This document shows, piece by piece, positions 4,117-26,400 of a stretch of 42,051 nt of DNA; the first letter of the stretch is position 1, and every line of letters begins with the position of its first letter. Under the pieces are notes generated by a model. That model had not been told where the DNA came from and ran no database searches. It saw nothing but the letters and a program-made list of their open reading frames with translations. Made by a program: the position numbers and the translations under genes. The DNA is from Euryarchaeota archaeon RBG_16_67_27 (GTDB taxonomy: Archaea > Thermoplasmatota > Thermoplasmata > RBG-16-68-12): assembly GCA_001800745.1 (NCBI GenBank), contig MGVZ01000047.1, positions 930-42,980 of the forward strand, written 5' to 3'.

Positions 4117-4143
4117 CGCACGCGTTCCAGGTCCTCGGGAGGG

Positions 4144-4149
4144 TAAATA
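4144..4149 (-). promoter_or_regulatory. Putative archaeal TATA box for dinB
   Basis: TATTTA on the minus strand about 28 nt upstream of the ATG, in a GC-rich context. Confidence 0.5.
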
Positions 4150-4177
4150 GCTTCGGGGAGGGCGCGCGGACGCGGGG

Positions 4178-7291: not shown

Positions 7292-7292
7292 G

Positions 7293-10995: not shown

Positions 10996-10996
10996 G

Positions 10997-11299
10997 TCAC
11001 CACCTCAGGAACCGGACCTTGTCGAGCTCGATCGTGCCGTGGGTCTGGTAGATGGACAGGAACACGGCGAGGCCAACGGCGGCCTCCGCGGCCGCGACGG
11101 CGATCGCGAGGAGCGCGAAGACGCCCCCGGCGGGGTCGCCTTTGTACGCGCTGAACGCGACGAAGTTCAGGACGGCCGCGTTGAGGATGATCTCGATCGA
11201 CATGAGGACGATGATCCCGTTCTTTCGCGCGAGGATCCCGTAGAGGCCAATCGCGAGGAGGAGGGACGAGAGGATGAGCTCATACTCGAGCGGGATCAC
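10997..11299 (-). CDS. nuoK: Complex I subunit K
   Basis: IGLYGIL, LMSIEIILNA, VAAAEAAVGLA. GTG start at 11299 overlaps the upstream stop. Confidence 0.95.
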   Translation of the reverse strand: MIPLEYELILSSLLLAIGLYGILARKNGIIVLMSIEIILNAAVLNFVAFSAYKGDPAGGVFALLAIAVAAAEAAVGLAVFLSIYQTHGTIELDKVRFLRW

Positions 11300-11556
11300 G
11301 GGCCCACCTTCCCGGGCTCGTCCATCTTGGAGAGGTAGATCCCGCCGATCATCGCGCTCCCGAGGAGCAGGGCGATCAGGATCACGGCGATCGGGAACGA
11401 GTCGAAGAGAGCGTTCGCGATCCCCTGGTCGGAGACCGGATCGTACGCGGGGATCTCCGTCGGGTCCGAGGGCCACGGCACGTTGACGAAGGACAGGGCC
11501 ATCACGAGGAAGAGCGGCGTGACGGCGGCGAGGGCGAGGATCCCGCGGCGGTCCAT
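11296..11556 (-). CDS. nuoJ2: Complex I subunit J, C-terminal half (J2)
   Basis: IANALFDSFPIAVILIALLLGSAMIGGIYL matches the NuoJ C-terminus. Lies between J1 and K. Confidence 0.85.
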   Translation of the reverse strand: MDRRGILALAAVTPLFLVMALSFVNVPWPSDPTEIPAYDPVSDQGIANALFDSFPIAVILIALLLGSAMIGGIYLSKMDEPGKVGP

Positions 11557-11831
11557 CAGGTCCCCTCCTCCGTCGACGGTTCGTCCATGATCTTCGTGCG
11601 GGTGAGCATGAGGCCGAAGACGAACAGGATGGGCACCGTGCCCGCGTAGACGAGGATCTGGATCAGGAAGATGAACTCCGAGCCGAACAGCAGGTAGATC
11701 CCGCCGATCGTGACGAGGGTCATCGCGAGCCAGAACGCCGCGCGGACGAGCCGCTTGTTCGTGACGACGAGGATCGAGCCGACGACCTCGAGGACGCTCA
11801 GGACGAGGAACGCGACGAGCTCCCAGTCCAC
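11556..11831 (-). CDS. nuoJ1: Complex I subunit J, N-terminal half (J1)
   Basis: LVRAAFWL, SEFIFLIQILVYAGTVPILFVFGLMLT. Confidence 0.9.
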   Translation of the reverse strand: MDWELVAFLVLSVLEVVGSILVVTNKRLVRAAFWLAMTLVTIGGIYLLFGSEFIFLIQILVYAGTVPILFVFGLMLTRTKIMDEPSTEEGT

Positions 11832-11838
11832 GGCCGTC

Positions 11839-13068
11839 TCACCACCCCACGAGGCTCGCCCCGGCAGCGAGGAGGATCGCGAGCAGGGAGAGCGGGATGA
11901 GGCGCTTCCACCCGAGCTGGAGGATCTGGTCGATCCGGATCCTCGGGACGGACCAGGAGATCCAGATGAACACCACGCTGAGGAGGTACACCCGGAGCAT
12001 GAACCAGACCTCCTCGGGGATGATCGGCACGGGGATGCCCGCGACCTGGACGACGGTGAACACGGGGCCCGTCCAGCCGCCGAGGTACAGGATCGAGATG
12101 AGGCCCGCGCCCGCGATCATCCGGAGCCACTTGAACCCGAACAGGAGCCCGAACCGCATCCCGCTGTACTCCGTCGTCCAGCCCTCGACGAGCTCCGCCT
12201 CCGCCTCCGGGATGTCGAACGGGATCCGCTCCATCTCCGCCATCATCGCGACCGCGAACACGACGGCGCCGAGCGCCTGCGGGCCGAAGAGGTTCCACGC
12301 GGGGATCGCGAGAGGGCCCAGGGTCACCAGGGTCCGCTCCTGCTGCGCGACGATCTCGTACACGTCGAGGGAACCCGTCGTGAAGACGAGGGCGATCACG
12401 CACAGGATCAGGGGGATCTCGTACGCCATGAGCTGGGCCGCTGCCCGCATGCCGCCGACGAGGGTGTACTTGTTGTTCGCGGACCAGCCCGCGATGAGGA
12501 TCCCGAACGGGGCGATGGAGAACGCGGCGAGGATGAACAGGAGGCTCAGGTCGGGCTTCGCGACGACGAAGCCGCTGCTCCAGGGGAGCGCGACGAAGAT
12601 CATGAGGGTGGACGAGGCGATGAGCACGGGGGCCATGTGGAACATCGCGGAGTCCGCGCCGCGGGGGGTGAGGTTCTCCTTCTGGAGGAGCTTCATGCCG
12701 TCGGCGACGTTCTGCAGGTAGCCCCAGCCCTTGTGCGTGGGGCGGTCCTTCCGGTTGAAGGGCCAGATCGGCAGGGACCAGATGGAGACCATGATGCCGT
12801 ACCGGTCCTGGAGCCGGCTGTAGAACTTCCGCTCGACCCACATCATGGTAAGCAGGTTGATCAGCACGGCCCAGAGGAGCATGACCGTCATCACGACGAG
12901 CCATGTGACCGCGCTGACCACGGGGTCGCTCGCGAGCCAGTTCCCCAGGTCCTTGAGGGGCGGGATCACGGCGCCGAGCGCGAGGAGGATCTGCTGGACG
13001 ACCCAGAGGATCGCGCCCGTGAGGACCTTGCACGTCGCGAACAGGTCGGGCACGAGGGGCTGGCTCAC
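11839..13068 (-). CDS. nuoH: Complex I subunit H
   Basis: WVERK, ADGMKLLQKE, GWSANNKYTLVGGMRAAAQLMAYE, ERIPFDIPEAEAELVEGWTTEYSG, PRIRIDQ. GTG start at 13068 overlaps the nuoD stop. Confidence 0.95.
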   Translation of the reverse strand: MSQPLVPDLFATCKVLTGAILWVVQQILLALGAVIPPLKDLGNWLASDPVVSAVTWLVVMTVMLLWAVLINLLTMMWVERKFYSRLQDRYGIMVSIWSLPIWPFNRKDRPTHKGWGYLQNVADGMKLLQKENLTPRGADSAMFHMAPVLIASSTLMIFVALPWSSGFVVAKPDLSLLFILAAFSIAPFGILIAGWSANNKYTLVGGMRAAAQLMAYEIPLILCVIALVFTTGSLDVYEIVAQQERTLVTLGPLAIPAWNLFGPQALGAVVFAVAMMAEMERIPFDIPEAEAELVEGWTTEYSGMRFGLLFGFKWLRMIAGAGLISILYLGGWTGPVFTVVQVAGIPVPIIPEEVWFMLRVYLLSVVFIWISWSVPRIRIDQILQLGWKRLIPLSLLAILLAAGASLVGW

Positions 13069-14156
13069 TTGTCCATCTCCCCCACGCAGACGTCGATCGA
13101 CCCGAGGATCGCGACGAGGTCCGCAAGCTTGTTCCCCCGGAGCATGAGCGGCGTGGCCGCCATCGAACAGAAGATCGGGCTCCGAATCTTCACGCGGTAC
13201 GGACGGTCGTCGCCGTCGCCGAGGATGTAGAAGAGCGCCTCGCCGCGGGAGTCCTCCGTGCGCGCGAAGCCGTCCCCCTCCGCGCGACGCGGCTCCTTCG
13301 TCCGGTACGCGCCCGACGTCGGCATCTTCTCGAGCACCTGGAGGATGATGTCGCACGACGTGCGCATCTCGTTGAACCGGCACACGAACCGGGCGTACGA
13401 GTCGCCCGCACTGGACCCCTTCCAGACCTGGGCCTCGAAGTCGAGCTCGTCGTACGTCTCGTAGGGGTCGAGCCGCCTCAGGTCGACGTTCACGCCGCAC
13501 GCGCGGAGGTTCGGACCCGTCACGCCCCAGTTGATCGCGTCCTCCGCGGAGATCCGTCCGACGCCGAGGGTCCGAAGGTGGAAGATCTTCGAGTCGTGGA
13601 GGAGCTTCTCGTACTCGTCGAGCTTCCCCTCGAAGTGCGTGATCACCCGGCGGCACATCCCGTCGAAGTTCTCCGGCAGATCGTTCCGGACGCCGCCGAT
13701 CCGCGGGTAGTTCTGGTTCATCCGCGCGCCCGTGAGGAGCTGGAGAAGGTCGAGCCAGAGCTCCCGCTCCCGAAGGGCCCAGAGGAGCGCCGTGAGGAGG
13801 CCGAGGTCAGGCCCGTACGCGGCGAGCCACATCAGGTGGCTCGCGACCCGCTGGATCTCGAGGGCGAGCACGCGGATCCACTGCCCGCGCACGGGGACCT
13901 CGAGGCCCATCATCTTCTCCGCGGCGAGGCAGTACGCGTGGGACCAGGTGAGGGACGACACGTAGCAGAGCCGGTCCGTGAGCACGACGTTCTTCTGGAA
14001 CTCGCGCACCTCCATGATCTTCTCGTACCCGCGGTGGAGGTACCCGATCTCCGGCTTCGCATCCGTGATCGTCTCGCCGTCGATCTTCACCTTCATGTTC
14101 CAGAGCCCGTGGGTCATGGGGTGCTGCGGCCCCATGTTGATCCAGAACCCGGGCAC
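13065..14156 (-). CDS. nuoD: Complex I subunit D
   Basis: NMGPQHPMTHG, GYLHRGYEK, DRLCY, SHLMWL, TGARM, PYRVKIRSP, C-terminal DVCVGEMDK. Confidence 0.95.
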   Translation of the reverse strand: MPGFWINMGPQHPMTHGLWNMKVKIDGETITDAKPEIGYLHRGYEKIMEVREFQKNVVLTDRLCYVSSLTWSHAYCLAAEKMMGLEVPVRGQWIRVLALEIQRVASHLMWLAAYGPDLGLLTALLWALRERELWLDLLQLLTGARMNQNYPRIGGVRNDLPENFDGMCRRVITHFEGKLDEYEKLLHDSKIFHLRTLGVGRISAEDAINWGVTGPNLRACGVNVDLRRLDPYETYDELDFEAQVWKGSSAGDSYARFVCRFNEMRTSCDIILQVLEKMPTSGAYRTKEPRRAEGDGFARTEDSRGEALFYILGDGDDRPYRVKIRSPIFCSMAATPLMLRGNKLADLVAILGSIDVCVGEMDK

Positions 14157-15212: not shown

Positions 15213-15776
15213 ATGGCGACGACGCGGGGCCTCCCACCCGGACAGCGCGAGGTGAGGAAGTGGCCCCGCCTCGACCTCGGGATCGTGCCTCGGTTCGATC
15301 CGCGGGAATGGGATCTCCGCGTCGACGGGGCCGTCGACCGGCCGCTTCGGCTCACGTACGAGGAGCTGCTCGCCCTCCCGTCTGCACGCGTGACGTCCCC
15401 GTTCCACTGCGTGACGGGGTGGACGACGTTCGACAACGCGTGGGACGGCGTCACGGTCCGCGAGCTCGCGACGCGCGCGGGCATCCAGCCGGGGGCGAGG
15501 TTCGCGACGTTCTACTGCGGTGACGGCTACACGACCTCGCATCCCCTGGACGTCCTCTACGACGCCGATGTGCTGATCGTCTACCGCCATGACGGGAACC
15601 CCCTCCCGCTCGAACACGGCGGCCCGGTCCGGCTCCTCGTGCCGAAGCGCTACGCGTACAAGAGCGCGAAGTGGGTGCGGCGGATCGCGTTCACTCAGGA
15701 GGAGGAGCTCGGCTACTGGGAGGTCCGGGGCTACAGCAACACCGCGGACCCCTGGACCGAGGACCGCTACGCCTGA
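15213..15776 (+). CDS. Sulfite oxidase-like molybdopterin-binding oxidoreductase (single domain, YuiH/MsrP-like)
   Basis: LPPGQ, FHCVTGW (Mo-ligating Cys), EHGGPVRLLVP, YAYKSAKWV, GYWEVRGY. Confidence 0.9.
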   Translation: MATTRGLPPGQREVRKWPRLDLGIVPRFDPREWDLRVDGAVDRPLRLTYEELLALPSARVTSPFHCVTGWTTFDNAWDGVTVRELATRAGIQPGARFATFYCGDGYTTSHPLDVLYDADVLIVYRHDGNPLPLEHGGPVRLLVPKRYAYKSAKWVRRIAFTQEEELGYWEVRGYSNTADPWTEDRYA

Positions 15777-15799
15777 GCCCGCCCCCGGTTCGGAAAGTC

Positions 15800-15805
15800 C
15801 TTAAG
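15800..15805 (+). promoter_or_regulatory. Putative TATA box for tatC
   Basis: GGAAAGTC-CTTAAG in the intergenic region. Confidence 0.45.
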
Positions 15806-15879
15806 GGGACCGGACCTTCGGCCGGATTCGCGGGGGTCTGGCCACCAAGCCCGAGGACGACGGGGTCGAGGAACGTCGG

Positions 15880-16671
15880 ATGACGTTTTTCGGGCACCTC
15901 GAGGAGCTCCGCCAGCGGCTCAAGGTCATCATCCTCGCGTTCGTCGTCCTGTTCCTCGTCTTCATCACGTTCAGCCTCCAGTACGGGGTGCTCGGCCTGC
16001 CGATGTACCTCCCGGTGCCCTCCCTCGACCCGAAAGCCTCCATCGCCTCCCAGTTCCTCGTCGCCCTCCAGGACCGGTACATCCCCGCGAACGTGACGAC
16101 GATCGTCCTCACCCCCTGGGAGGCCGTCGTCGTCCAGTTCAAGACGGCGCTCTTCCTCGCCGCGGTCGCGATCTCGCCGATCTCCACGTACGAGTTCTGG
16201 GCGTTCGTGCGGCCCGCCCTGAGGCCAAAGGAGCGGCGGCTCCTCGTCCGGATCTCCGCCCCGGTCGTGCTCCTGTTCCTCGCGGGCGTCGCGATGTCCT
16301 TCCTGGTCGTCCTCCCGTTCACGATCCCCTTCCTCTACGACATCGCCGGCGGCCTCGTGGACGAACCGTTCTTCCAGCTCCAGGAGTTCCTCGACTTCGT
16401 CCTGCTCTTCAGCCTCGCGTTCGGGCTCGCGTTCGAGCTCCCGGTCCTCATGTACGGCCTCTCGTCCCTCGGGATCGTCTCGCCGGAGTTCTGGGCGCGG
16501 AACTGGCGGTACGCGGCGATCGGGATCTTCGTGTTCGGGGCGTTCATCACGCCGGACGGCAGCGGGGTCACTATGATGCTCGTCTCCGTTCCCATGCTCG
16601 CCCTCTATGCGGGGGGATACGGAGCGTCCCGGCTCCGCGAGCGCCGGAGAGCACGGGCGAAAACCTCATAA
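15880..16671 (+). CDS. tatC: Twin-arginine translocase subunit TatC
   Basis: HLEELRQRL, YEFWAFVRPALRPKE, FGLAFELPV, AFITPD, PMLALY. The true start may be upstream (CTG at 15838). Confidence 0.95.
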   Translation: MTFFGHLEELRQRLKVIILAFVVLFLVFITFSLQYGVLGLPMYLPVPSLDPKASIASQFLVALQDRYIPANVTTIVLTPWEAVVVQFKTALFLAAVAISPISTYEFWAFVRPALRPKERRLLVRISAPVVLLFLAGVAMSFLVVLPFTIPFLYDIAGGLVDEPFFQLQEFLDFVLLFSLAFGLAFELPVLMYGLSSLGIVSPEFWARNWRYAAIGIFVFGAFITPDGSGVTMMLVSVPMLALYAGGYGASRLRERRRARAKTS

Positions 16672-17131: not shown

Positions 17132-17204
17132 TCCCCTCCGAGGGCGCGTCGTCATCTTTATGCGAGCGCGCCGTTTACGGCGCGTCAACGCAGGAGCCGG
17201 GAGC

Positions 17205-18725
17205 ATGGCGAGCCTCGACTACGCACACCGTCGCCTCGTGAACACGCTCGGCCCCGAGCGCGTCGCGCGCGGCGAGTTGGAGCGGATGGTCTACAGCCAC
17301 GACTTCGCGGCGCTCCCGAAGCTCGTCCTTGCCCAGTGGCGCCTCTACCCGGACTTCGTCGTCCTCCCGCAGACGACGGAGGAGGTCTCCCAGGTCGTCC
17401 GCCTGAGCGACGAGACGGGCCTGCCGATCACGCCCCGGGGCGGCGGCACGGGGATGTTCGGCGCCTCCGTGCCGAACCGCGGCGGCGTCCTCATCGATCT
17501 GCGGAAGATGTCGAAGGTCATCGCATTTGACGCGGAGAACCGGACGGCGACCGTCGAGGCCGGCGCGACGTGGGCCGCGGTCGAGGGATACCTGCGCTCG
17601 AAGGGGTTCGCGCTCCCCGTCGTGCCCGCGGCCGCACCCGCGAGCACGGTCGGCGGGGCGATCAACGGCGGCGGCGTGGGCTACGGCTCGTTCCGCCACG
17701 GTCCGCTCCGCGCGCACGTCCTCGACCTCGAGGTCGTGCTGCCCGACGGGAGCGTCATGCGGACGGGGGACGCGCGGGAGTCAGGGGGCGCATTCGCGGA
17801 CCTCACGGCTGCGTTCTTTGGCGCGGAGGGCACCCTCGGGATCGTCACGAAGGCCGTCCTGAGGATCCGCCCGAAGCCGGAGGAGTCGAAGGCCGCTGCG
17901 TACGCGTTCCCGGACCTCGCGTCGGGCGCGGCGTTCCTCACACGGATCGTCGAGACGGGCGAGACCCCGTTCCACGTCGCACTCATCGATCGCGAGCATC
18001 TCACGTTCGAACGCGCGGTCCGCGCGGAGACGCCGGATCCCGCGGACATCGCCATCGTCACTTTCGAAGGGACGAAGGACGAGATCCCCCTCCAGGAGAA
18101 GGCGATCGACGCCCTCGCGGCTGCGGGGAACGGGACGAAGCTCGCGTCCGAAGTCGCCGCGGACCTGTGGGCCCGGCGACACATCCGCTACGGCGCGCGG
18201 CGCCTGAGCCGCGGGCTCGTCGTCTCGTCGAACTTGGTGCCCGTCGCACGGCTCGGCGAGGCGATCGCCCGGACCCAGGCCCTCATCCGCCGGCACAAGG
18301 TCAACGCGGCGATCCAGGTCGCCCTCGTCGACTCGACGACCGCCGCCCTGAGCCCCTACGCCCTCATGGACGACACGACGCTCTCTGGCGGGACGACGCT
18401 CGGTTTCGTGAAGAAGATGGGCGACCTCGCGATCGAAATCGGCGGCCACCCGATCGGCCTGGGCCTCCTCATGGTGTTCAACCTGCGGAAGATGCACGGC
18501 CGGGCGACGGGCTCGATGGGGGCGGTGAAGCAGGTGTTCGATCCCGGCCGCAAGGTGAACGCGGGGAAGACGATCGAGGTCTGGACGAAGTTCAACTGGC
18601 CCCTGATCAACGTGATCCCGCCGCCGTTCATGGAGTTCGGGTTGAACGTCGCCGCGGCCCTTCGCCGGGCGAAGCCATTCCGGGACAGGTTCCTGAAGGC
18701 GTACGAGCGGCAGGGAGGCGCCTGA
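17205..18725 (+). CDS. FAD-binding oxidoreductase, GlcD/D-lactate dehydrogenase-like (VAO/PCMH fold)
   Basis: VYSHD, PDFVVLP, PRGGGTG, STVGG, LEVVLPDG, GAEGTLGIVTKA, KQVFDP..VNAGK. ATG at 17205 after GGAG. Confidence 0.85.
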   Translation: MASLDYAHRRLVNTLGPERVARGELERMVYSHDFAALPKLVLAQWRLYPDFVVLPQTTEEVSQVVRLSDETGLPITPRGGGTGMFGASVPNRGGVLIDLRKMSKVIAFDAENRTATVEAGATWAAVEGYLRSKGFALPVVPAAAPASTVGGAINGGGVGYGSFRHGPLRAHVLDLEVVLPDGSVMRTGDARESGGAFADLTAAFFGAEGTLGIVTKAVLRIRPKPEESKAAAYAFPDLASGAAFLTRIVETGETPFHVALIDREHLTFERAVRAETPDPADIAIVTFEGTKDEIPLQEKAIDALAAAGNGTKLASEVAADLWARRHIRYGARRLSRGLVVSSNLVPVARLGEAIARTQALIRRHKVNAAIQVALVDSTTAALSPYALMDDTTLSGGTTLGFVKKMGDLAIEIGGHPIGLGLLMVFNLRKMHGRATGSMGAVKQVFDPGRKVNAGKTIEVWTKFNWPLINVIPPPFMEFGLNVAAALRRAKPFRDRFLKAYERQGGA

Positions 18726-18726
18726 C

Positions 18727-20157
18727 ATGGGCCTCCTCAGGGACTGGACCTTTGTGGAGGAGAGGACGCGGATCCCCGCGCTGTCCGAGATCGTCCGCGA
18801 GGCGCTCGTCCGCGCCCTGTTCTGCCGGGACGACCGCGTCCTCCCGCGGGAGGTCATCGCCGTCCTGTCGCGGCCGCCCGCGGTGACCGTGAAGGTCCAC
18901 GACGACGGCGAGATCCGCAAGCTCGTCGCGTTCGCGAACGGGGAGGAGACGTCCGCGAACCTCGGGTTCTCCGCGGAGGACTACCACTACTTCCGGAAGC
19001 AGCTCAGCGTCGGTCGCGCGACGGAGATCGGGTTCGCGCCGCGGCCGAAGACCCTCCTCACGTACGACTGGATGATCCCCGAGCCCCGCGGGATCCTCCT
19101 CGACTTCTCCGCGTACGCAGGGATCGAGATCCCCGACCGGGGCGAACGGGCCGTGGCCCAGGTCGGAGCGACGTGGAAGGCCGCGTACGACGCGGCGCTC
19201 GCGTCCGGCCACATCCTGCCGTTCGTGCCCGCGGTGCCCCTCGACTTCGCAATCGGCGACGGGATCTGGGGGGACGCCCCCTTCGTCGGGTACGACGCGG
19301 ACTTCGCCTCCTGCGTCCTCGCCCTCCGGACGATCTCCGCGTACGGCCACCGCACCCAGGTGGGCTTCCAGGACGTGTCGAACGAAGGGACGGGGTACGA
19401 TCTCCTGCACCTGATCCTCCCGCACGCGGCGGAGTTCTTCATCCCCGTCGCCGTGGCCGTGCGGCTCCTCCCTCGTCCCGCGGCACGCAAGACGCTGACG
19501 TACCGGTTCGACGACCCGGGCAAGCTCGGGCTCGCCCTGGACCGGCTCACCCGCTCAGGCCGCTCCGCGTGGTGGGCGAACCTCACGGACGCGGGCGCGT
19601 CCGCCCTCCTGTGGCCCGGCACGGCCCCTGAGCCGTTCACGCTCCAGGTCGCGGTGTGCGGCACGGAGGCGGCCCTCGCAGGAAGGGAAAAGGCGCTCGA
19701 CGCGCTCCTCGCCGGGTTCAAGGCGAAGGCCGCAGACGTCCCGAACCCCTACGACGTGCCGGAGGCCGCGTACCGGAAGACCGCGGACCGCATCGGGCGC
19801 GCCCTGTTCGTCGGAGAGGTCCGTCTGCCCTCGCGTGCCGTGCCGGACCTCCACGGGAAACTCACCGCGCTCGCCCAGCAGGCGGGGACGAAGGTCCACC
19901 TCTTCGCCGCACTCCGGGGGACGGGCACGGCGTCCGCGTTCCCCGCATTCGAGGCGCAGAAGGACCGCACCCGTACGTACGACCTCTCCAAGGGCGTCGA
20001 CCGCGTCGCGGGGACGATCCCGGGCGCCCTATTCGCGTCCCGGCTCGCGCATCTCTGGCGGGAGGACGAGGAATACGTCCGACGGGTCCGTCTCCTCCGG
20101 GCCCTGAAGCTCGAGATCGATGCGGCCCACGTCGTCCAGCCGCTCGCGGCGGTCTGA
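18727..20157 (+). CDS. Divergent FAD-binding (PCMH-fold, GlcE-like) protein
   Basis: GILLDFS...AVAQVGATW, NEGTGYDLLHL (compare GlcD/E N.tGYDL), and C-terminal LKLEIDAAHVVQP. Starts 1 nt after the upstream paralog's stop. Confidence 0.6.
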   Translation: MGLLRDWTFVEERTRIPALSEIVREALVRALFCRDDRVLPREVIAVLSRPPAVTVKVHDDGEIRKLVAFANGEETSANLGFSAEDYHYFRKQLSVGRATEIGFAPRPKTLLTYDWMIPEPRGILLDFSAYAGIEIPDRGERAVAQVGATWKAAYDAALASGHILPFVPAVPLDFAIGDGIWGDAPFVGYDADFASCVLALRTISAYGHRTQVGFQDVSNEGTGYDLLHLILPHAAEFFIPVAVAVRLLPRPAARKTLTYRFDDPGKLGLALDRLTRSGRSAWWANLTDAGASALLWPGTAPEPFTLQVAVCGTEAALAGREKALDALLAGFKAKAADVPNPYDVPEAAYRKTADRIGRALFVGEVRLPSRAVPDLHGKLTALAQQAGTKVHLFAALRGTGTASAFPAFEAQKDRTRTYDLSKGVDRVAGTIPGALFASRLAHLWREDEEYVRRVRLLRALKLEIDAAHVVQPLAAV

Positions 20158-20158
20158 G

Positions 20159-20680
20159 TCACACGCCCGTCCACGGGACGCCCTTGTACGGGCTCATCAC
20201 GATCTGGGACCGGACGTCCCGGATCCCGTCCATCCGCAGGTCGCGGTCGAGGAACGCGTGGAGCTCCGTCATGTCCACGAAGAGCATCACGCACAGGACG
20301 TCGTGGTCCCCTGTCACCCGGTAGACGGCGACCGCACGGCTGTGCGCGCACAGGCGGGCGACGACGCGCTCCCGGTGCGAGGGATCGATCGCGAGGTGCA
20401 CATACACCTTCACGGGGTTCTCGATCAGCTGGTAGTTCAGGTAGCAGGAGTACCCCTGGATGATCCCCTTGTCTTCGAGGGCCTTGATCCGGCGCCGAAT
20501 CGTCGCCTCGGAGATCTTGAGCTGCCGGGCGATCTCGACGTTCGAGAGACGCGCGTTCTCGCGGAGCTTGCTCAGCACGCGGACGTCGACCTCATCGATC
20601 GGGAGCAGACGGAGGTCGAGTCCCTTCCACCGCTCCGCGAGGACGATGTGGTCGCGCACCTTTCCGATCGTGGGAATCAC
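20159..20680 (-). CDS. Lrp/AsnC family transcriptional regulator
   Basis: IDEVDVRVLSKLRENARLSNVEIARQLKISEATIRRRIKALEDKGIIQGY (HTH) and YRVTGDHD (RAM domain). GTG start at 20680 after GGAAGG. Confidence 0.9.
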   Translation of the reverse strand: MIPTIGKVRDHIVLAERWKGLDLRLLPIDEVDVRVLSKLRENARLSNVEIARQLKISEATIRRRIKALEDKGIIQGYSCYLNYQLIENPVKVYVHLAIDPSHRERVVARLCAHSRAVAVYRVTGDHDVLCVMLFVDMTELHAFLDRDLRMDGIRDVRSQIVMSPYKGVPWTGV

Positions 20681-20778: not shown

Positions 20779-21102
20779 TCACATCTGGGGCGCACCGCAC
20801 GCGGGGCAGATCGCCTGCCCCGGCGCCAGGACGGTCAGGCACGCGATGCAGCGATCCGTGCGGATCTTGACGGGAAACATGGAGACGAAGATCCCCAGCG
20901 GGATGAACACGAGGGCGAGCGCGTAGTTCGCGGTCACGATCCCCTCGAGCCCGATCGCGACGAGGAACACCCCCGCAATCTTCATGATCACGATCAGCCG
21001 CTGGACCTTCGGCAGGTTCTTGATCGTCGCGATCTCCTGCCGGTACGTCATGCGCGGGGCCTTGCGCGCTTTGCGGACGGTCTCCGTCGCGGGCGCGGTC
21101 AT
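20779..21102 (-). CDS. Small two-TM membrane protein with C-terminal zinc ribbon
   Basis: Two hydrophobic segments, then CIAC-x10-CPACG. Directly abuts the ferredoxin gene. Confidence 0.75.
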   Translation of the reverse strand: MTAPATETVRKARKAPRMTYRQEIATIKNLPKVQRLIVIMKIAGVFLVAIGLEGIVTANYALALVFIPLGIFVSMFPVKIRTDRCIACLTVLAPGQAICPACGAPQM

Positions 21103-21588
21103 TCAGGCCCCCTCGGGTCGTGCCGCGGGCGCGGCCGGCGGCGGCGCGGGCTTCGCCAAGGGCGCGGCGGGCGGGGTCGTCGAGACGAGCTTCCCGTCCC
21201 TCATCTCAAAACCGTGCTTCGGGAGCATCGTGATCGCGTCGACGGGGCATACGATCGCGCACTTCTCGCAGCCCACGCAGTTGTCGTACACGATCACCGC
21301 CTTCCGCGAGGTGTAGGAGAAGTCCGGGAGGGCGAACTTCCGGTCCGCCATCGCGATCGCCTCGAACGCACAGTTGTCGAAGCAGTGCGTGCAGCCCATG
21401 CACACGGCCTCGTCGACCTCCGCGACCGTCCCCCGGCCACGGATGAACTCCTGCGTCCGGCCCCGGTAGAACGGCTTGTAGCGGTCCTTCGCAAGCTGCA
21501 GGTTCGCCTGGCGGATGCCGCGGTAGTACTCGACGACGGGGTCCAGGGGAGGAGCGTCGGCCGGCACCGCGCCGACGGGCGTCGCCAT
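21103..21588 (-). CDS. 2x[4Fe-4S] ferredoxin-domain protein with Pro/Ala-rich tail
   Basis: CMGCTHCFDNCA and CVGCEKCAIVCP. ATG at 21588 overlaps the upstream stop. Confidence 0.9.
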   Translation of the reverse strand: MATPVGAVPADAPPLDPVVEYYRGIRQANLQLAKDRYKPFYRGRTQEFIRGRGTVAEVDEAVCMGCTHCFDNCAFEAIAMADRKFALPDFSYTSRKAVIVYDNCVGCEKCAIVCPVDAITMLPKHGFEMRDGKLVSTTPPAAPLAKPAPPPAAPAARPEGA

Positions 21589-22553
21589 CAGCCGCCTCCC
21601 TTCCGCCCCGGCGGCGGGGGCTGCGTCCGCTTCGGGTCCACGTTGCCCCCGGTCGGGTAGTCGCCGGGCAGGCTCTCCGCGAGGAACTGGGTGATGTCCA
21701 TCACGCGGTACCGGAACCGCTCCTCCTCGGGCCGCCACTTGTTCTCGTGGTGGAGGCAGCCGAAGTGGGTGAGGCACTTCGGGCACGCGGTCAGGAGGAC
21801 GTCTGCGTCGACCTCCGCGGCCTCGTCCATCCGCATCCGCGTGAGGCCCTTCGTCTTGTCGTTGCAGTACATCATCTGCGCGACTCCACAGCACTGCGCG
21901 TCCGCGCGGAAGGTCTTGAGCTCGACGAGTTCCGCGTTGTCCACCCGCTTGATCAGCTCCCGGGGCTCCTCGTAGACGGGGTCGACGGGCATCTGCCGGC
22001 ACGAGCGGCACGGGTCCTGGTACGCGACGCGGATTCGCTTCGCGGATTCCCCCCGCGGCGGGATGCGGAGGCCGCGCTCGTAGAGGATCTGTGTGATGTG
22101 CACGACCCTCACGCCGTCGAGCTTGTAGTCGAGCTTGAACGTCCGGTAGCCCTCCGCACACGACGTGACGAGGGTCTTCACGCCGAGCATCTTGATGATC
22201 TTCGTGTTGTAGTCGCGCATCTTCCGGAAGACGTCGACCTTCCCCTGCCACAGCTGGTCGTGGCCGCAGCACTTCATGAAGGAGCGGTCGAGGATCATCG
22301 GCTCGATCCCGACGGCCCGGAGGAGCTTGATCGAGGAGTCGAAGATGATCCCGTGGTTCGTGTCCCCGTAGTTCGTGTGGGAGAACTGCATCTCCTGGTC
22401 GTAGTAGTCCACGCACCCCGGGTAGTATGCGTACTCCGACGCGTGGGCGACCTTGATCTCCGGGACCGTGGTGTCGTCCGCCTCCGCGTCCAGGAGCCGG
22501 AAGAGGACGGGATGCGGGATCGTCCGGCCGGGACCGTACTCCGTGTCCATCAT
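21588..22553 (-). CDS. CCG-domain Fe-S protein (HdrD/HdrB/GlcF-like)
   Basis: Two cysteine-rich CCG domains: YYPGC...KCCG...TSCAEG and YQDPC...QCCG...TACPKC. Confidence 0.9.
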   Translation of the reverse strand: MMDTEYGPGRTIPHPVLFRLLDAEADDTTVPEIKVAHASEYAYYPGCVDYYDQEMQFSHTNYGDTNHGIIFDSSIKLLRAVGIEPMILDRSFMKCCGHDQLWQGKVDVFRKMRDYNTKIIKMLGVKTLVTSCAEGYRTFKLDYKLDGVRVVHITQILYERGLRIPPRGESAKRIRVAYQDPCRSCRQMPVDPVYEEPRELIKRVDNAELVELKTFRADAQCCGVAQMMYCNDKTKGLTRMRMDEAAEVDADVLLTACPKCLTHFGCLHHENKWRPEEERFRYRVMDITQFLAESLPGDYPTGGNVDPKRTQPPPPGRKGGG

Positions 22554-23869
22554 TCGGGCTCACCGCCGTCCGCCGCGATCCGGCCCGCGCTCTTCGCCCT
22601 CTCCTCGAGGATGTAGTCGCTGTACTTGATGTCGAGCGGGCAGACCGCGCTGCACGCGTCGCACGCGAGGCACGTCCAAAGCGGCACGCCGTCGTGCTGC
22701 TTCTTGAACGTGTTGTACACGAGGTTCAGGCCGCCGCGGGCGTCGTCCTCGACCTTGGTCACCGGGCACACCGTGTGGCACTTGCCGCACTGGTAGCACT
22801 CGTTGAGGAGGTACTCGTACGTGCTGTACGGCCGCCGGAGGCCGAACCATGCGGTGAGCACGACGAACGCCGGAAGGAACAGGAGGGTGTTCATGTTCGG
22901 GTACAGGACGTACAGGACCCAAACCATCGTGTCGCCTCCCGTCGCGTCGTACCACGCGAACAGACCGAGGAACCCCGCGAGGCCGGCGGCCCCGGTCAGG
23001 AGGACGGCCTTCCGGGCCGTCGCCTCGGGCAGCAGGACCACGGCGAGCGCGGTCACCCCTGCGGTCCCGCAGAGGACCGCGAGGAACAGGGAGAGCGGCA
23101 CGAGGTGCGGCTGGCTGTAGAGGGGCAGGCTGCCGGGCTGAAGGAGCAGGAGGAGCGCGTGCAGGATGACGATCAGGAATCCCGCGCCGGAGAGGGGCAC
23201 GATCCAGCTGCGCATCGGGCGGAAGCCCAGCCGCCGCAGGCCGACGTAGGTCGCGAGCCCGACGAGGATCGGCGGGACGAGGAAGAACCACTTCATCGTG
23301 TCGTCCGGGATCAGCGGGAGGACCCTGCGGACGTCCGGGCTCGGGTCGATGTCGGGCGTGGACCAGCGCTCCGCGACGACCTCGCGGATCGAGTAGAGGG
23401 ACGCGGTGAAGATCGAGACGATCCCCGCGAGGCCCACGGCGGACCGGACGGGCGCCTTCGCGGGGCGCGCCTCGCGACCCCGGTCAAGGAACGGGAGCAG
23501 GATCAGGGCGATGATCGGGATCCCGCTGAGGAGGTCCCCCCAGAGCTGCGGGCTGAACCGGACGGGACCGAGGGAGAACTGCGGGAAAATGTCCGCGACC
23601 TTGAGGAGGCCCCAGGAGAAGAGCAGGTACCAGTCCGGGACGATGAGCTCGGACACCTGGGGACTCCGCGCGGGGCCGAGGAACGGGGTCACGAACGCGG
23701 AGAGGAAGAACATGAGCGCGACGAGGAGGAAGATCACGACGAGGTCCCGCGTGGCCTCCTGGGGCCAGAGCGGGATCCCGGGCTGGTGGTCCGTCCGCGC
23801 GGGGCCGTACTGCCGGGTGAACCCGGGCCGGTCCTCGAACACCCGCTCCCGCACCTTCTCGAGTTCCAT
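22550..23869 (-). CDS. petD: Cytochrome b6f subunit IV-like (PetD) protein fused to extra TM helices and an HdrC-like 2x[4Fe-4S] domain
   Basis: N-terminal PLWP, IVPDWYLL (PEWY-like Qo motif) and LLPFLDRG. Several additional TM helices. C-terminal CYQCGKCHTVCP and WTCLACDACSAVCP. ATG at 23869 after GAGGTG. Confidence 0.88.
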   Translation of the reverse strand: MELEKVRERVFEDRPGFTRQYGPARTDHQPGIPLWPQEATRDLVVIFLLVALMFFLSAFVTPFLGPARSPQVSELIVPDWYLLFSWGLLKVADIFPQFSLGPVRFSPQLWGDLLSGIPIIALILLPFLDRGREARPAKAPVRSAVGLAGIVSIFTASLYSIREVVAERWSTPDIDPSPDVRRVLPLIPDDTMKWFFLVPPILVGLATYVGLRRLGFRPMRSWIVPLSGAGFLIVILHALLLLLQPGSLPLYSQPHLVPLSLFLAVLCGTAGVTALAVVLLPEATARKAVLLTGAAGLAGFLGLFAWYDATGGDTMVWVLYVLYPNMNTLLFLPAFVVLTAWFGLRRPYSTYEYLLNECYQCGKCHTVCPVTKVEDDARGGLNLVYNTFKKQHDGVPLWTCLACDACSAVCPLDIKYSDYILEERAKSAGRIAADGGEPE

Positions 23870-23877
23870 CGTGCACC

Positions 23878-24648
23878 TCAGTGGGGCTCCGCGACCCCCT
23901 GGATCCAGACGAGGGCCATGTGGAGGATCATGAGCACCGTCGCGACTAGGGGCAGGATGAAGACGTGGAGCCAGTACATCCGGAGGATGTAGATCCCCGA
24001 CAGCGTGCCGATGTCCCCCCACAGCAGGGTCGCGGCCGCGTCTCCGATGAACGGGGTCGCCCGCGTCATCTCGATCCCGATGTTCGCCGCGCCCTCGCTC
24101 AGGTTGTTCCCGGGCAGGAGGTAGCCGGAGTACCCGAAGAGGATCGTGAGCAGGAGGAGGACGACCCCGAGGAGCCAGTTCAGCTCCCGCGGCTTCTTGT
24201 ACGCCCCCGTGAAGTACACGCGACACATGTGAAGGAACACCGCGGCGACCATGATGTGCGCCGCCCAGTGGTGCATGCCGCGCACGATGAATCCGAACGG
24301 CACGTCGTTCATGATGTACAGCATCGACTGCCACGCCTTGTTCGTCACGTCGTCCTCAGGCCCCAGGAGCTGGTACGTGCCGTCGGGCACGTAAAAGAAG
24401 CCGAGGATGATCCCGGTGATCGTGAGGATGATGAACGCGACGAACGAGATCCCGCCGAGGCAGTACAGCGGGTACCAGTACCAGATCGTCTTCAGTTCGT
24501 ACTTCTCCGCGTGGCTCCGCGGCATCTGGCGCTGGTCCGTCTCGATCGCCTTACGGGTGAGGTCCACCCAGGGCGTCGTGGGGAATCTGTCGCGGATCCA
24601 GCCGACGACGGTCCTCTTCCCTTCCTGCCGGAGCGAGCTTCCCGCCAT
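23878..24648 (-). CDS. petB: Cytochrome b6-type (split) cytochrome b
   Basis: YCLGG, heme ligands H-x13-H (MHHWAAHIMVAAVFLH) and H-x14-H (LHVFILPLVATVLMILH), YKKPRELNW, GYLLP, C-terminal QGVAEPH. ATG at 24648. Confidence 0.95.
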   Translation of the reverse strand: MAGSSLRQEGKRTVVGWIRDRFPTTPWVDLTRKAIETDQRQMPRSHAEKYELKTIWYWYPLYCLGGISFVAFIILTITGIILGFFYVPDGTYQLLGPEDDVTNKAWQSMLYIMNDVPFGFIVRGMHHWAAHIMVAAVFLHMCRVYFTGAYKKPRELNWLLGVVLLLLTILFGYSGYLLPGNNLSEGAANIGIEMTRATPFIGDAAATLLWGDIGTLSGIYILRMYWLHVFILPLVATVLMILHMALVWIQGVAEPH

Positions 24649-24655
24649 GCTCCCC

Positions 24656-25447
24656 CTACCCACAGTAGACGTACCAGGCGGGGTCCGCCATGCCGCCGAC
24701 GAGGTTGCCGCCTTCGACCTTGACCGCGATGATCGGGAGCGCTCGGTCCGCGGGGCCATGGGTGTGGAGCGCCCCGACGTACGTCGCGTTGTTCCGCGGG
24801 TTCACGTGCTGGACGAGGGTCATCGGCTCGTACTGCGAGCCATGGCATACGCAGTAGATGGGGTCCTCTCCGTACTTCTCGTATGTCGGCGTGGGAGCGA
24901 TGTACCGCCGGTCCGGCGGCGGGTTGTCGACGACGTGCCATCCCGGATAGCAGCACAGGTGGACGCACCGGTCGAACGCGACGATGATCCGGACGCCCCG
25001 CGGCTGCCCCGTGTCCGGATCCACATCCGCGGTCGGGTCATCGTAGAAGAGCGAGAACCCCTCCGGCAGGCTGATGTCGTCCGGGGCCGCGAAGACGGTG
25101 TCGTCCCGCTTCACGCGGATCACGAGAACGGGGAACCCCGTGCCCGGCACGTGGGCGTCGTCCTGGAAGAGACCGCGCCACACGCCCGTCGCGCCCTCCC
25201 ACTCCTTGAAGTCGCCGACCTTCATGGGCGTGCCGACCTTCGAGTTCCACCACTGCGGGGTCGGGAATTTCGTGTAGAAGATCGTCTCGCGAATCTCGCC
25301 GGAGCGCTCGATCGGGGGCGGGACGAGCTGCCGCCCCGAGACGGCCCCGAGGGAGGCGAGCGTGCCGATTGCCCCGACGGTCATCCCGAGCTTGACCCAC
25401 TCCCGACGGGTCCAGCCCCGGTTCCTCTCGCCCTCTTCCCAGCTCAT
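24656..25447 (-). CDS. Rieske [2Fe-2S] protein with twin-arginine signal/anchor
   Basis: TRREWVK followed by a TM segment. Boxes CVHLCC and CVCHGSQY. GPADRALP. Confidence 0.93.
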   Translation of the reverse strand: MSWEEGERNRGWTRREWVKLGMTVGAIGTLASLGAVSGRQLVPPPIERSGEIRETIFYTKFPTPQWWNSKVGTPMKVGDFKEWEGATGVWRGLFQDDAHVPGTGFPVLVIRVKRDDTVFAAPDDISLPEGFSLFYDDPTADVDPDTGQPRGVRIIVAFDRCVHLCCYPGWHVVDNPPPDRRYIAPTPTYEKYGEDPIYCVCHGSQYEPMTLVQHVNPRNNATYVGALHTHGPADRALPIIAVKVEGGNLVGGMADPAWYVYCG

Positions 25448-25456
25448 CGATCTCCC

Positions 25457-25750
25457 TCAGCGGAACGTCCGCGGTGGAACAATCTTGGGCCTTCGGAGCT
25501 TGTGAATGAGCTCGTCCGGCATGAACTCTCTGCGATAAACGTCCGTCGCGACGGCCGCGAGGACGAAGACCATGCCGAGGAAGAGCGCCATGTACGTGTC
25601 CGTGAGGCCGTCGGAGACGCCGGCGGACACCTGGAGCGCGAGGAGGATCGCGAGCGCGGTGAACCAGAGAACACCCACGACGAGGCCGCCGATCGCGAGG
25701 GCGGCCATCGCGCTCCGGTGAGGCGGGTCCGTCCGGATGATCTCCGTCAC
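25457..25750 (-). CDS. Two-TM membrane protein, probable accessory subunit of the Rieske/cyt b complex
   Basis: Two TM helices followed by YRREFMPDE..K.RR.K. Located in the operon between the cupredoxin and Rieske genes. Confidence 0.75.
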   Translation of the reverse strand: MTEIIRTDPPHRSAMAALAIGGLVVGVLWFTALAILLALQVSAGVSDGLTDTYMALFLGMVFVLAAVATDVYRREFMPDELIHKLRRPKIVPPRTFR

Positions 25751-26400
25751 GGGAGCCCCTTCCGCATGTGGTCCCGGTGGTCCCTGAACTTCGGGGTCGA
25801 GGACTTGATCACGAAGTAGCTCACGCCGATCCAGCCGATCATCGCCGCGATCCCGATCATCCCGATCCAGTACGCGCGGATGAGGACGCCCTTGTCCGCA
25901 GGCCCTTCGTCGCCGCCCGTCGGCGCGCCCGCCAGGACGATCTCGCCGATCATTCCCGCGGCCTGCCCGCCGACGTCGATCCGGTGCGGGATGCAGTAGA
26001 ACCGTATGCCGCGGGCGGACGCCTCTGGGGTGAACGAGACTGCCCCGTTCGTGACGTTCGTCATCGAGTTCACGGTGAACTCGAGGAACGACCGGTTCCC
26101 CGGTCGGATGAACCCGCTGTCGACGAGGCCCCGGGAAGACCGGTCCTCGTTGTCGATCGTGAACGTGTGGAAGTTCAGCGGTTGCGTGTCGTTATTGATG
26201 AACGTGATGTTGAGGATGATTGGGACCTGCGGGATCGTGATTACGATGGGCACGAATACGGGGCCGTCCGCCCCCGTCGTGCCGACGACCTCGAGGGAGA
26301 GCTTCGGCACCGCGTTCTGGGCGGCCGCAGGAGGGAGGCCGGAAGGCGCAGCGAAAACGGTCAATATTCCTATCGCTACGAAGAGTGCGATCCTCCTCAT
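25747..26400 (-). CDS. Membrane-anchored blue-copper protein (cupredoxin)
   Basis: Signal peptide, HTFTID, FYCIPH...GMIGEI (type-1 Cu His/Cys/His/Met) and a C-terminal TM helix. Confidence 0.82.
   Translation of the reverse strand: MRRIALFVAIGILTVFAAPSGLPPAAAQNAVPKLSLEVVGTTGADGPVFVPIVITIPQVPIILNITFINNDTQPLNFHTFTIDNEDRSSRGLVDSGFIRPGNRSFLEFTVNSMTNVTNGAVSFTPEASARGIRFYCIPHRIDVGGQAAGMIGEIVLAGAPTGGDEGPADKGVLIRAYWIGMIGIAAMIGWIGVSYFVIKSSTPKFRDHRDHMRKGLP

Follow-up and report, generated by a model that had tools for sequence, protein, structure and literature searches.

An operon of Candidatus Angelarchaeales encoding a b6-type complex with an Hdr-like iron-sulfur domain fused to subunit IV

Introduction

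It is usual to regard Rieske/cytochrome b complexes as closed machines of the Q cycle, and the exchange of electrons with soluble carriers at the negative (n) side of the membrane is an old question, one that touches on what haem ci does, on cyclic flow dependent on ferredoxin in b6f complexes and on a proposal for NAD(P)H production in anammox bacteria. Cytoplasmic iron-sulfur (Fe-S) modules joined to a membrane cytochrome b are found in QmoABC and DsrMK, where the module is HdrC/HdrD-like and where Qmo brings HdrA-like flavoproteins. They are also found in HdrDE of the Methanosarcinales, where a dihaem cytochrome b is coupled to a unit of one 2×[4Fe-4S] domain and two CCG domains; HdrE is a NarI-type cytochrome b, with no Rieske protein or Q cycle. 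HdrDE connects a cytoplasmic redox couple with the pool of quinone or phenazine and is considered reversible (PMC4683180, PMC9012536). The same logic of a 2×[4Fe-4S] domain plus two CCG domains, combined with a pair of FAD-linked oxidases, is found in GlcDEF and in fused FAD-oxidase/Fe-S/CCG dehydrogenases. In the Rieske/cytochrome b complexes of anammox bacteria, a cytoplasmic redox module has been proposed to take the low-potential electron (PMC12954380). Here we describe an operon from Euryarchaeota archaeon RBG_16_67_27 (assembly GCA_001800745.1, contig MGVZ01000047.1, positions 930 to 42,980; this whole stretch of 42,051 nucleotides is called the window) that encodes a b6-type complex with a 2×[4Fe-4S] domain fused to its subunit IV.

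According to the names of metagenome-assembled genomes (MAGs) and Diamond et al. 2022 (PMC9038741), the lineage is Candidatus Angelarchaeales, which those authors describe as an aerobic amino-acid degrader and heterotroph with many ferredoxin-using enzymes. In two sentences they also note hdrD-like and rnfB-like genes beside complex III and suggest entry of electrons from ferredoxin (PMC9038741). The initial annotation of the window had proposed a complex III exchanging electrons with a cytoplasmic module: the anatomy on which it relied is upheld here, while the idea is not wholly new, given Diamond et al. and the anammox precedents. It also knew of no characterised complex with this architecture, and no experimental characterisation was found in the literature. 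The fusion is real and widespread, and no earlier description of it was found in the literature, a scope to which the supplementary tables and figures of Diamond et al. 2022 and Chadwick et al. 2022 do not belong. Cofactor content, contact with the haems, direction of flow and substrate are what we infer.

Results

Organization of the operon

The operon consists of eight open reading frames (ORFs) on the minus strand, between positions 20779 and 26400, with a spacing that ranges from a 4-nucleotide overlap to a 9-nucleotide gap. ATGA-type overlaps are present at the junctions between subunit IV and the CCG protein and between the CCG protein and the ferredoxin. The tightly packed set is as first annotated, each gene at its annotated position. 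In the order of transcription, the genes and the parts of the fusion are as follows (TM, transmembrane):

25747–26400, minus strand: plastocyanin-like type-1 copper protein (cupredoxin) with signal peptide and carboxy-terminal TM anchor; invariant residues and plastocyanin profile match
25457–25750, minus strand: DUF7318 protein with two TM segments; PF24002, E 2.3e-9
24656–25447, minus strand: Rieske [2Fe-2S] protein with twin-arginine signal anchor; invariant motifs and TIGR01416
23878–24648, minus strand: cytochrome b6 with four TM helices; PF00033, E 2.8e-35
22550–23869, minus strand: subunit IV–Fe-S fusion, 439 amino acids, whole gene; PF00032 and Fer4_8 class
23225–23869, minus strand: subunit IV part of the fusion, residues 1–215, helices E, F and G and an H-like helix; PF00032
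22838–23224, minus strand: four further TM segments of the fusion, residues 216–344, the TM5-8 linker; hydropathy
22550–22837, minus strand: HdrC/GlpC/GlcF-type 2×[4Fe-4S] domain of the fusion, residues 345–439; Fer4_8, E 9e-9
21588–22553, minus strand: two-CCG protein, 321 amino acids; PF02754 in two stretches, E 2.3e-22
21103–21588, minus strand: RnfB-like 2×[4Fe-4S] ferredoxin, 161 amino acids, with conserved amino-terminal helix; Pfam and NCBIfam
20779–21102, minus strand: protein with two TM segments and a carboxy-terminal zinc ribbon; CxxC...CxxC, weak DZR and Zn_ribbon matches (E 0.005)

We are confident that this operon encodes an archaeal b6-type quinol:cupredoxin oxidoreductase with an n-side iron-sulfur extension. 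In the cupredoxin, residues His78, Cys136, His139 and Met150 are invariant among 14 orthologues and the orthologue profile matches plastocyanins (E ~1e-5), while the Pfam scan gave no match; the protein is presumed to be the acceptor of the Rieske protein on the positive (p) side. The Rieske protein contains an invariant Arg14-Arg15 pair and invariant C161-x-H163-x2-C166 and C199-x-C201-H202 motifs (13 orthologues); here too the Pfam scan found no match, and the support from hidden Markov models is weak, being limited to TIGR01416 at E 8e-6. The DUF7318 protein is likely a small subunit of the complex, and its gene lies 5' of the Rieske gene in 32 loci (at least 60% coverage). The zinc-ribbon protein is conserved in 28 loci.

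Cytochrome b6 aligns to solved b6 chains with an E-value of 4.6e-37, its LYCLGG segment falling on FYCLGG and its cysteine on Cys35. His127, His140, His228 and His243 are invariant among 20 orthologues, and Cys63 of the CxGG motif is at least 90% conserved. The cysteine of CxGG is a ligand motif for haem ci/cn (PMC5600118), and a haem ci is predicted here from the motif, the cofactor content being deduced from sequence. The profile of subunit IV aligns with the carboxy-terminal half of solved cytochromes b, and the residues of its PDWY motif at the Qo site (Pro78, Asp79, Trp80 and Tyr81) are invariant. Kao and Hunte associate PDWY with menaquinol and low-potential Rieske proteins (PMC4122944). 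The initial annotation also remarked on the absence of a cytochrome c, and no c-type cytochrome family was detected among the eight products by Pfam or NCBIfam, a search that covered these products and not the remainder of the genome.

The Fe-S domain of the fusion contains eight invariant cysteines (358, 361, 364, 368, 400, 403, 406 and 410), arranged as two CxxCxxCxxxCP motifs, and gives weak matches to GlpC, HdrC and QmoC. A complete CCG motif has the form Cx31-39CCx35-36CxxC. Of the 11 invariant cysteines of the CCG protein, five complete its second motif (Cys182, Cys221, Cys222, Cys257 and Cys260) and two are additional (Cys230 and Cys266); the first motif, which is degenerate, is taken up in the Discussion. 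The ferredoxin has two full CxxCxxCxxxC motifs and aligns to the carboxy-terminal ferredoxin domain of HdrA/HdrA2.

Topology of the fusion protein and assembly support

The fusion protein has eight hydrophobic segments, five of them located between subunit IV proper and the Fe-S domain; the initial annotation had not mentioned these five. Lysine and arginine are abundant at the amino-terminus, in the loops that follow segments 2, 4 and 6 and in the stretch that runs into the Fe-S domain, and the alternate loops, including the one with PDWY, contain few of these residues. By homology with b6f and bc1 structures, we assign the amino-terminus of subunit IV to the n side and PDWY to the p side. 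Because the number of TM segments is even, the loops follow the positive-inside pattern and the orientation agrees with the homology, the Fe-S domain is predicted to be cytoplasmic; an extracellular domain, an objection that the initial annotation had foreseen, is at odds with this topology. A Sec/Tat dual export of the Fe-S domain, an arrangement described by Tooke et al. (PMC5449189), was rejected, since the TM count is even, signal peptides are absent from the partner proteins and the arginines come after the last TM segment and not before it.

Contigs of other sequencing runs span the junction between TM8 and the Fer4 domain (22757–22906 in runs X1 and X2), with no indels listed, and a contig of X1 spans the junction between the subunit IV stop and the CCG start (22429–22625). 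These bridging contigs are short and may stem from the sample of the window itself, hence they are possibly not independent of the assembly. Near-identical DNA is present in at least 13 soil or sediment runs. In the ESM Atlas only generically named Fer4 clusters of Thermoplasmatota were found, and no structure.

Conservation and distribution

A word-indexed search identified 217 relatives among 8000 scored candidates; the 120 of these matches that were listed range from 100% to ~51% identity and are mostly full length. A scan of species-representative genomes gave 50 loci, comprising 41 archaeal MAG loci (46–75% identity) and nine weak, partial bacterial ones. Gene order is retained throughout the 41 loci, all from Thermoplasmata MAGs (Candidatus Angelarchaeales), and the CCG gene lies directly 3' of the fusion in each of the 35 loci with downstream sequence; the other six of the 41 end inside the fusion gene or no more than ~300 nucleotides beyond it. 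The ferredoxin gene is present in 31 loci. With 41 independent MAG loci and contigs of other runs across the junction, the fusion is not peculiar to one assembly, and the neighbourhood survey (35/35 assessable loci) bears out the link between the CCG gene and the pet genes, two points on which the initial annotation had made its reading depend.

The distribution was sampled in 401 genomes of the class. Full-length matches to the fusion occur in families f1 (29/33), f4 (9/11), f5 (3/3) and f7 (1/1), all of one order, that of the window; none was found outside these four families, the remaining matches covering the Fe-S domain alone. Families f2 and f3 of the same order have a cytochrome b in 4/8 and 4/6 genomes, respectively, without a full-length match to the fusion.

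When the proteins are compared across the loci, the Fe-S domain has a mean identity of 92% and the CCG protein a median of 87%, followed by cytochrome b6 (78%), the ferredoxin (73%), the Rieske protein (57%), the cupredoxin (46%) and the TM5-8 linker (37%, mean). By this ranking, constraint within the operon is strongest on the cytoplasmic module.

Relatives of different architecture

Searched exhaustively with phmmer, a set of 1.84 billion representatives yielded 243 matches with E <=0.001. Twenty of the 150 listed matches, picked for an odd length or for two matched stretches, were scanned with Pfam. In five of these 20 (P0144, P0150, P0152, P0160 and P0161), PF00032, Fer4 and two CCG domains are present in a single chain; two (P0138 and P0151) contain PF00032 and Fer4 alone, and the rest have PetD alone or Fer4/CCG alone, apart from P0184, a metagenomic protein of 531 amino acids in which PF00032 with four TM segments is fused to the amino- and carboxy-terminal FrhB_FdhB domains, an F420-type module. 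The single-chain forms have four hydrophobic segments ahead of the Fe-S domain and retain CAEC in the first CCG motif, at the place of SCAEGY in the window protein.

A genome scan with an alignment of the five single-chain forms gave 79 loci. Eleven of them (L058-L068) match in all three parts, directly after cytochrome b6, and belong to Thermoplasmata, Bathyarchaeia, Geothermarchaeales and unclassified archaeal MAGs. In 9/11 of these fused loci, a gene for a ~1000-residue HdrA comes next, followed by MvhD in 8/11, the sequence ending early in L060 and L067; by NCBIfam this long HdrA is of the HdrA2 type (1003–1071 bits). Locus L068 encodes a fusion of 789 residues and eight segments; its next genes, for ferredoxin, zinc-ribbon protein and Lrp, repeat the arrangement of the window. 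DUF7318 is also present in L059, L061-L066 and L137-L138. The Pfam string of L058 (4729–14876), from an uncultured archaeon, reads multihaem cytochrome c, Rieske, b6, subunit IV-Fer4-CCG, HdrC, HdrB, HdrA of 1010 residues, MvhD and multihaem cytochrome c, so that flavin-based and quinone-based bifurcating modules would share one operon. In L059 (Candidatus Geothermarchaeales), an FrhB-like gene, assigned by NCBIfam, is located between the subunit IV-HdrD fusion and HdrA2 (3683–4798); MvhD is followed by a second, soluble HdrD-like gene and a GlcD-like gene (8380–10666).

The other 68 of the 79 loci encode soluble HdrD-like proteins of Methanoperedens and of the anaerobic methanotrophic archaea (ANME) ANME-2 and ANME-3, with HdrC, HdrB, HdrA2 and MvhD downstream in 5/6 loci inspected. 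Loci L137-L139 ('Halobacteria archaeon' and Methanobacteriota MAGs) contain cupredoxin, DUF7318, Rieske, b6 and a subunit IV of four TM segments with a Fer4 dicluster domain; no CCG gene is present in the 6 kb downstream, and a UbiA-like gene is next in L137.

In a maximum-likelihood tree of the CCG region (quick search, with Shimodaira–Hasegawa-like approximate likelihood-ratio support), the Angelarchaeales proteins form one clade (97), nested in a larger clade (84) to which the ANME clade (98) and every form fused to subunit IV belong as well. The three other CCG proteins of the window's genome fall outside this larger clade. The tree is informative neither on its root nor on the order of fusion and splitting. 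P0154 (932 residues) and P0183 (521 residues) have a CCG region in the subunit IV-fused clade and belong to a cluster of 38 members, some of them named heterodisulfide reductase subunit D; in P0154, an amino-terminal part of ~530 residues was not recognised by Pfam. As the single-chain fusions and the CCG tree agree, the Fe-S domain and the CCG protein are indicated, at the level of sequence, to be one split HdrD-like unit attached to the b6 complex. A split unit with its HdrC half on subunit IV had been read from the window at the outset, and both the Pfam domains and the single-chain relatives are in accord with it.

Model of the ferredoxin complex

Complex models of the ferredoxin with the Fe-S domain and the CCG protein gave ipSAE values (interaction prediction score from aligned errors) of 0.79, 0.42 and 0.75 (median 0.75), with 0.00 for the best control. 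At least 34% of the contacts are common between runs, and the partners have a predicted local distance difference test score (pLDDT) of at least 65. In calibration, the docking mark was reached by 58/80 solved complexes and 2/110 mismatched pairs, counts that hold roughly here, because own alignments were used. In the modelled interface, the amino-terminal helix and the cluster loops of the ferredoxin contact the first, degenerate CCG domain, with few contacts to the Fe-S domain. The model thus supports a predicted binding of the ferredoxin to the CCG protein.

Comparison with known systems

In its p-side half, the complex conforms to the ordinary archaeal b6 type and has a copper acceptor. 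With b6f and the Firmicute-type b6c complexes it has in common a four-helix b6 with four haem histidines and a CxGG cysteine, a separate subunit IV with P[E/D]WY and a Rieske protein that uses twin-arginine translocation (Tat) for its export. It differs in the cupredoxin, which replaces cytochrome f or c, in the five extra helices and the Fe-S domain of subunit IV and in three further cytoplasmic or membrane subunits. Other archaeal complexes, too, have been reported to have a cupredoxin in place of cytochrome c (PMC4122944).

In its apparent logic, the n-side half is akin to HdrDE, Qmo and DsrMK, but it would act through subunit IV of a Rieske/cytochrome b complex. In comparison with HdrDE, the unit is split, half of it is fused to subunit IV, and the host is not a methanogen. 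The initial annotation called the unit a heterodisulfide-reductase-like module; the likeness stands, while family membership does not. The HdrB score is 25.7 bits against a cut-off of 450 and the HdrC score 29.6 against 160; even the best match, the carboxy-terminus of TfrB, reaches 93 against 385. Solved HdrB and HdrC chains match with E-values of 1e-3 to 3e-5 (HdrB at 3e-5). As the scores fall far short of the HdrB, HdrC and GlcF cut-offs, the module is Hdr-like and not a heterodisulfide reductase, and membership of canonical HdrDE or GlcF was rejected.

Taking the generally accepted subunit composition of Qmo and Dsr, these complexes have a cytochrome b of a different family, another domain order, no Rieske protein and a context of sulfate reduction. 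Matches to QmoC (25.3 bits against 300) and DsrK are weak. Where QmoC has a cytochrome, the membrane part is here subunit IV, and the operon has no HdrA-like gene; the operons of the relatives with subunit IV-HdrD, HdrA2 and MvhD do parallel Qmo with its HdrA-like flavoproteins. GlcF is soluble or peripheral and single-chain, whereas the unit is split here, and the GlcF model scores 21.5 bits on the Fer4 domain against a cut-off of 333; we know of no link between GlcF and a Rieske/cytochrome b complex.

The HdrD-like proteins of Methanoperedens, ANME-2 and ANME-3 are 35–44% identical to the CCG protein of the window over nearly the full length (E 1e-55 to 1e-65) and share its clade, but are soluble, single-chain and without a cytochrome b6 or Rieske neighbour. 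They correspond to what Chadwick et al. 2022 mention in passing as 'occasional HdrD-like proteins' (PMC9012536). The anammox complexes are bacterial, with a flavin/NAD(P) module that is not fused to subunit IV and with multihaem c subunits.

Genome context

The window is a respiratory island with complex I membrane subunits, an MsrP-like molybdoenzyme, TatC, a GlcD pair, the b6 operon and an A-type ATPase. Downstream of the operon and convergent to it are the two FAD-linked oxidases considered as candidate donors in the Discussion; a regulator gene lies next to the operon:

20159–20590, minus strand: Lrp/AsnC regulator, downstream of the operon; Pfam
18727–20157, plus strand: degenerate GlcE-like FAD-linked oxidase; Pfam and NCBIfam
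17160–18725, plus strand: GlcD-like FAD-linked oxidase; Pfam and NCBIfam

The regulator is present in seven of the 41 loci (at least 60% coverage). The complex I membrane-arm genes (4178–13656, minus strand) include, besides N- and L-type antiporter-like subunits, two of the M type next to each other, a duplication of the M subunit that Diamond et al. 2022 report for the lineage (PMC9038741). Between complex I and the GlcD-like genes, at 15213–16671 (plus strand), are located a molybdopterin oxidoreductase of the MsrP/sulfite-oxidase fold (PF00174) and TatC.

Apart from the cytochrome b6 of the operon, no cytochrome b was found in the 75%-complete genome, which elsewhere encodes two multi-TM Fer4+CCG fusions and one soluble HdrD-like protein. 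At C53:4731-12139, a multi-TM-2×[4Fe-4S]+CCG protein (710-residue ORF), an HdrA-like protein and MvhD stand in a row, with a soluble HdrD-like ORF of 415 residues; a second TM-Fer4-CCG ORF (708 residues) is present at C68:9733-11856. With the C53 and C68 sets, which are loci L051-L055 and L142, this presumed aerobe holds three further Hdr-like membrane or soluble modules.

Discussion

The complex suggests, from its sequence, a route for electrons between the cell interior and the respiratory chain of soil archaea. On the p side it would consist of the Rieske protein, cytochrome b6 with haems bL, bH and ci, a subunit IV with the menaquinol-type PDWY, the blue-copper acceptor and DUF7318. Subunit IV would carry the 2×[4Fe-4S] domain by way of its five extra helices, the CCG protein would complete the split HdrD-like unit, and the RnfB-like ferredoxin would dock on the CCG protein. 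Up to six clusters could then form a chain, two in the ferredoxin, up to two non-cubane ones in the CCG protein and two in the Fe-S domain, running to haem bH/ci and to the n-side Qi site. Such an electronic coupling of the n-side module to the b6-type complex is probable. Electrons from reduced ferredoxin, from a thiol pair or from the adjoining GlcD/GlcE-like flavoenzyme would pass over the clusters to quinone at Qi, so that one complex would be both a donor:quinone reductase and a quinol oxidase. To this inward direction we give an even chance. It is favoured because the neighbours in the fused relatives (HdrA2, MvhD and FrhB) are cytoplasmic electron-input proteins, because the window ferredoxin aligns to the ferredoxin domain of HdrA2 and because the organism is described as rich in ferredoxin-dependent enzymes (PMC9038741).

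Several observations weigh against coupling and electron input. The contact between the Fe-S domain and haem bH/ci is an assumption, and the poorly conserved TM5-8 linker leaves the predicted position of the domain relative to Qi undefined. The module is far below the curated cut-offs of HdrB, HdrC, GlcF, GlpC and QmoC. In the first CCG motif, Cys47, Cys95, Cys96 and Cys132 are present but the last cysteine is missing, SCAEGY being invariant. That the CCG protein is so very highly conserved speaks for a catalytic site and not for a mere relay, a point that the input model leaves unexplained. We know of no thiol substrate for a non-methanogen, and DsrC was not found in the 75%-complete genome, which is not proof of its absence. 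The passing docking score of the ferredoxin may reflect a likeness to solved Hdr-type/ferredoxin complexes.

As a special case of electron input, the GlcD/GlcE-like pair may use the Fe-S domain of subunit IV and the CCG protein as its missing GlcF, electrons of D-lactate, glycolate or another 2-hydroxyacid entering the quinone pool at the complex; we consider this possible but would not expect it. The pair comes without its own Fe-S/CCG gene and adjoins the operon, although the convergent genes are not co-transcribed. Full-length GlcD2 is found in the families of the fusion (f1 38/43, f4 13/14, f5 3/4, f7 1/1) and not in the others (f2 0/8, f3 0/6, f6 0/2), the class-wide GlcD2 profile search giving mostly generic GlcD relatives outside these four families; related genomes are, however, non-independent samples. 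Adjacency is kept in f4 at a GlcD2 identity of 25–29%, and the one f4 locus with upstream sequence (L143) has no ATPase match in the 2.3 kb upstream of the cupredoxin gene, but in f7 the pair is on another contig. In family f3, a tandem FAD-oxidase fusion is directly followed by its own Fer4+CCG protein. A GlcD-like gene closes the b6-HdrD-HdrA2 operon of the Geothermarchaeales locus L059, while 10/11 fused loci have no GlcD nearby. The CCG protein of the window belongs to the clade of subunit IV and ANME HdrD-like proteins and not to the GlcD-associated one, and many FAD-linked oxidases function without GlcF.

Tandem FAD oxidases were observed in two loci of related Thermoplasmata, L146 (G121:C30) and L147 (G005:C4), which encode GlcE-like::GlcD-like fusions of 879–905 residues with two tandem FAD_binding_4 domains; in L146, a Fer4+2×CCG protein of 392 residues comes directly after the fusion.

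Electron output, in which the low-potential electron from Qo would pass over haem bH/ci and the clusters to a cytoplasmic disulfide at the CCG site or to ferredoxin, appears unlikely. The pull would come from the transfer from Rieske protein to copper to oxygen, as has been proposed for NAD(P)+ reduction in anammox bacteria, a precedent (PMC12954380) that speaks for output, as does PDWY in pointing to a low-potential quinol (PMC4122944). Output would explain better than input why no other product of the operon is as well conserved as the CCG protein, a trait to be expected in a catalytic subunit, and the closest family matches of this protein are to thiol-oxidising or disulfide-reducing modules (the carboxy-terminus of TfrB at E 1.4e-26, then HdrB and DsrK-type). 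On the other hand, an aerobe with NAD(P)H has little obvious need for quinol-driven disulfide reduction, a substrate for it is not known, and the HdrA2/MvhD partners in the relatives normally donate electrons to HdrBC-type units. Electrons leaving the Q cycle would also lower the proton yield at the only cytochrome b found in the genome.

Direct reduction of quinone at the membrane surface has been proposed for GlpC and SdhE. That the Fe-S/CCG/ferredoxin unit is likewise an independent peripheral oxidoreductase reducing quinone at the surface, or a redox sensor or assembly factor, with subunit IV as a mere anchor and no coupling to the b haems, is improbable: the 37% identity of the TM5-8 linker and the change between four and eight TM segments among lineages argue against a precise geometry, the weak family matches include GlpC and SdhE-type anchors and L137-L139 have the Fer4 domain without a nearby CCG gene, but at least five architectures, from several archaeal phyla, have a fusion specifically to subunit IV and always beside cytochrome b6, which anchoring alone would hardly explain, and the genome has other HdrD-like proteins equipped with multi-TM anchors of their own.

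With input through the n-side module as the preferred reading, a wider one can be offered tentatively: the carboxy-terminus of subunit IV may be the seat of a general cytoplasmic electron port in archaeal b6-type complexes. Such a port, if it should exist, could take the forms of Fer4, Fer4+CCG, Fer4+CCG with HdrA2/MvhD and an FrhB-type F420 module. If this is true, the complex III of Angelarchaeales would be a long-sought aerobic archaeal route for returning electrons to the quinone pool via haem ci, the donors being reduced ferredoxin, or thiols and 2-hydroxyacids, and its anaerobic relatives would join flavin-based bifurcation at HdrA2 and quinone-based bifurcation at the Qo site in one machine. 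In the subunit IV-Fe-S family, abundant soil archaea and several other archaeal lineages have a covalent, strongly conserved Fe-S connection at the site in question, and because this connection occurs in graded architectures, the question of n-side exchange can now be put to structural and biochemical tests. The family is also a candidate solution to the problem of how aerobic archaea that produce ferredoxin pass these electrons into respiration, and it ties the unexplained HdrD-like paralogue of the anaerobic methanotrophs to a membrane context.

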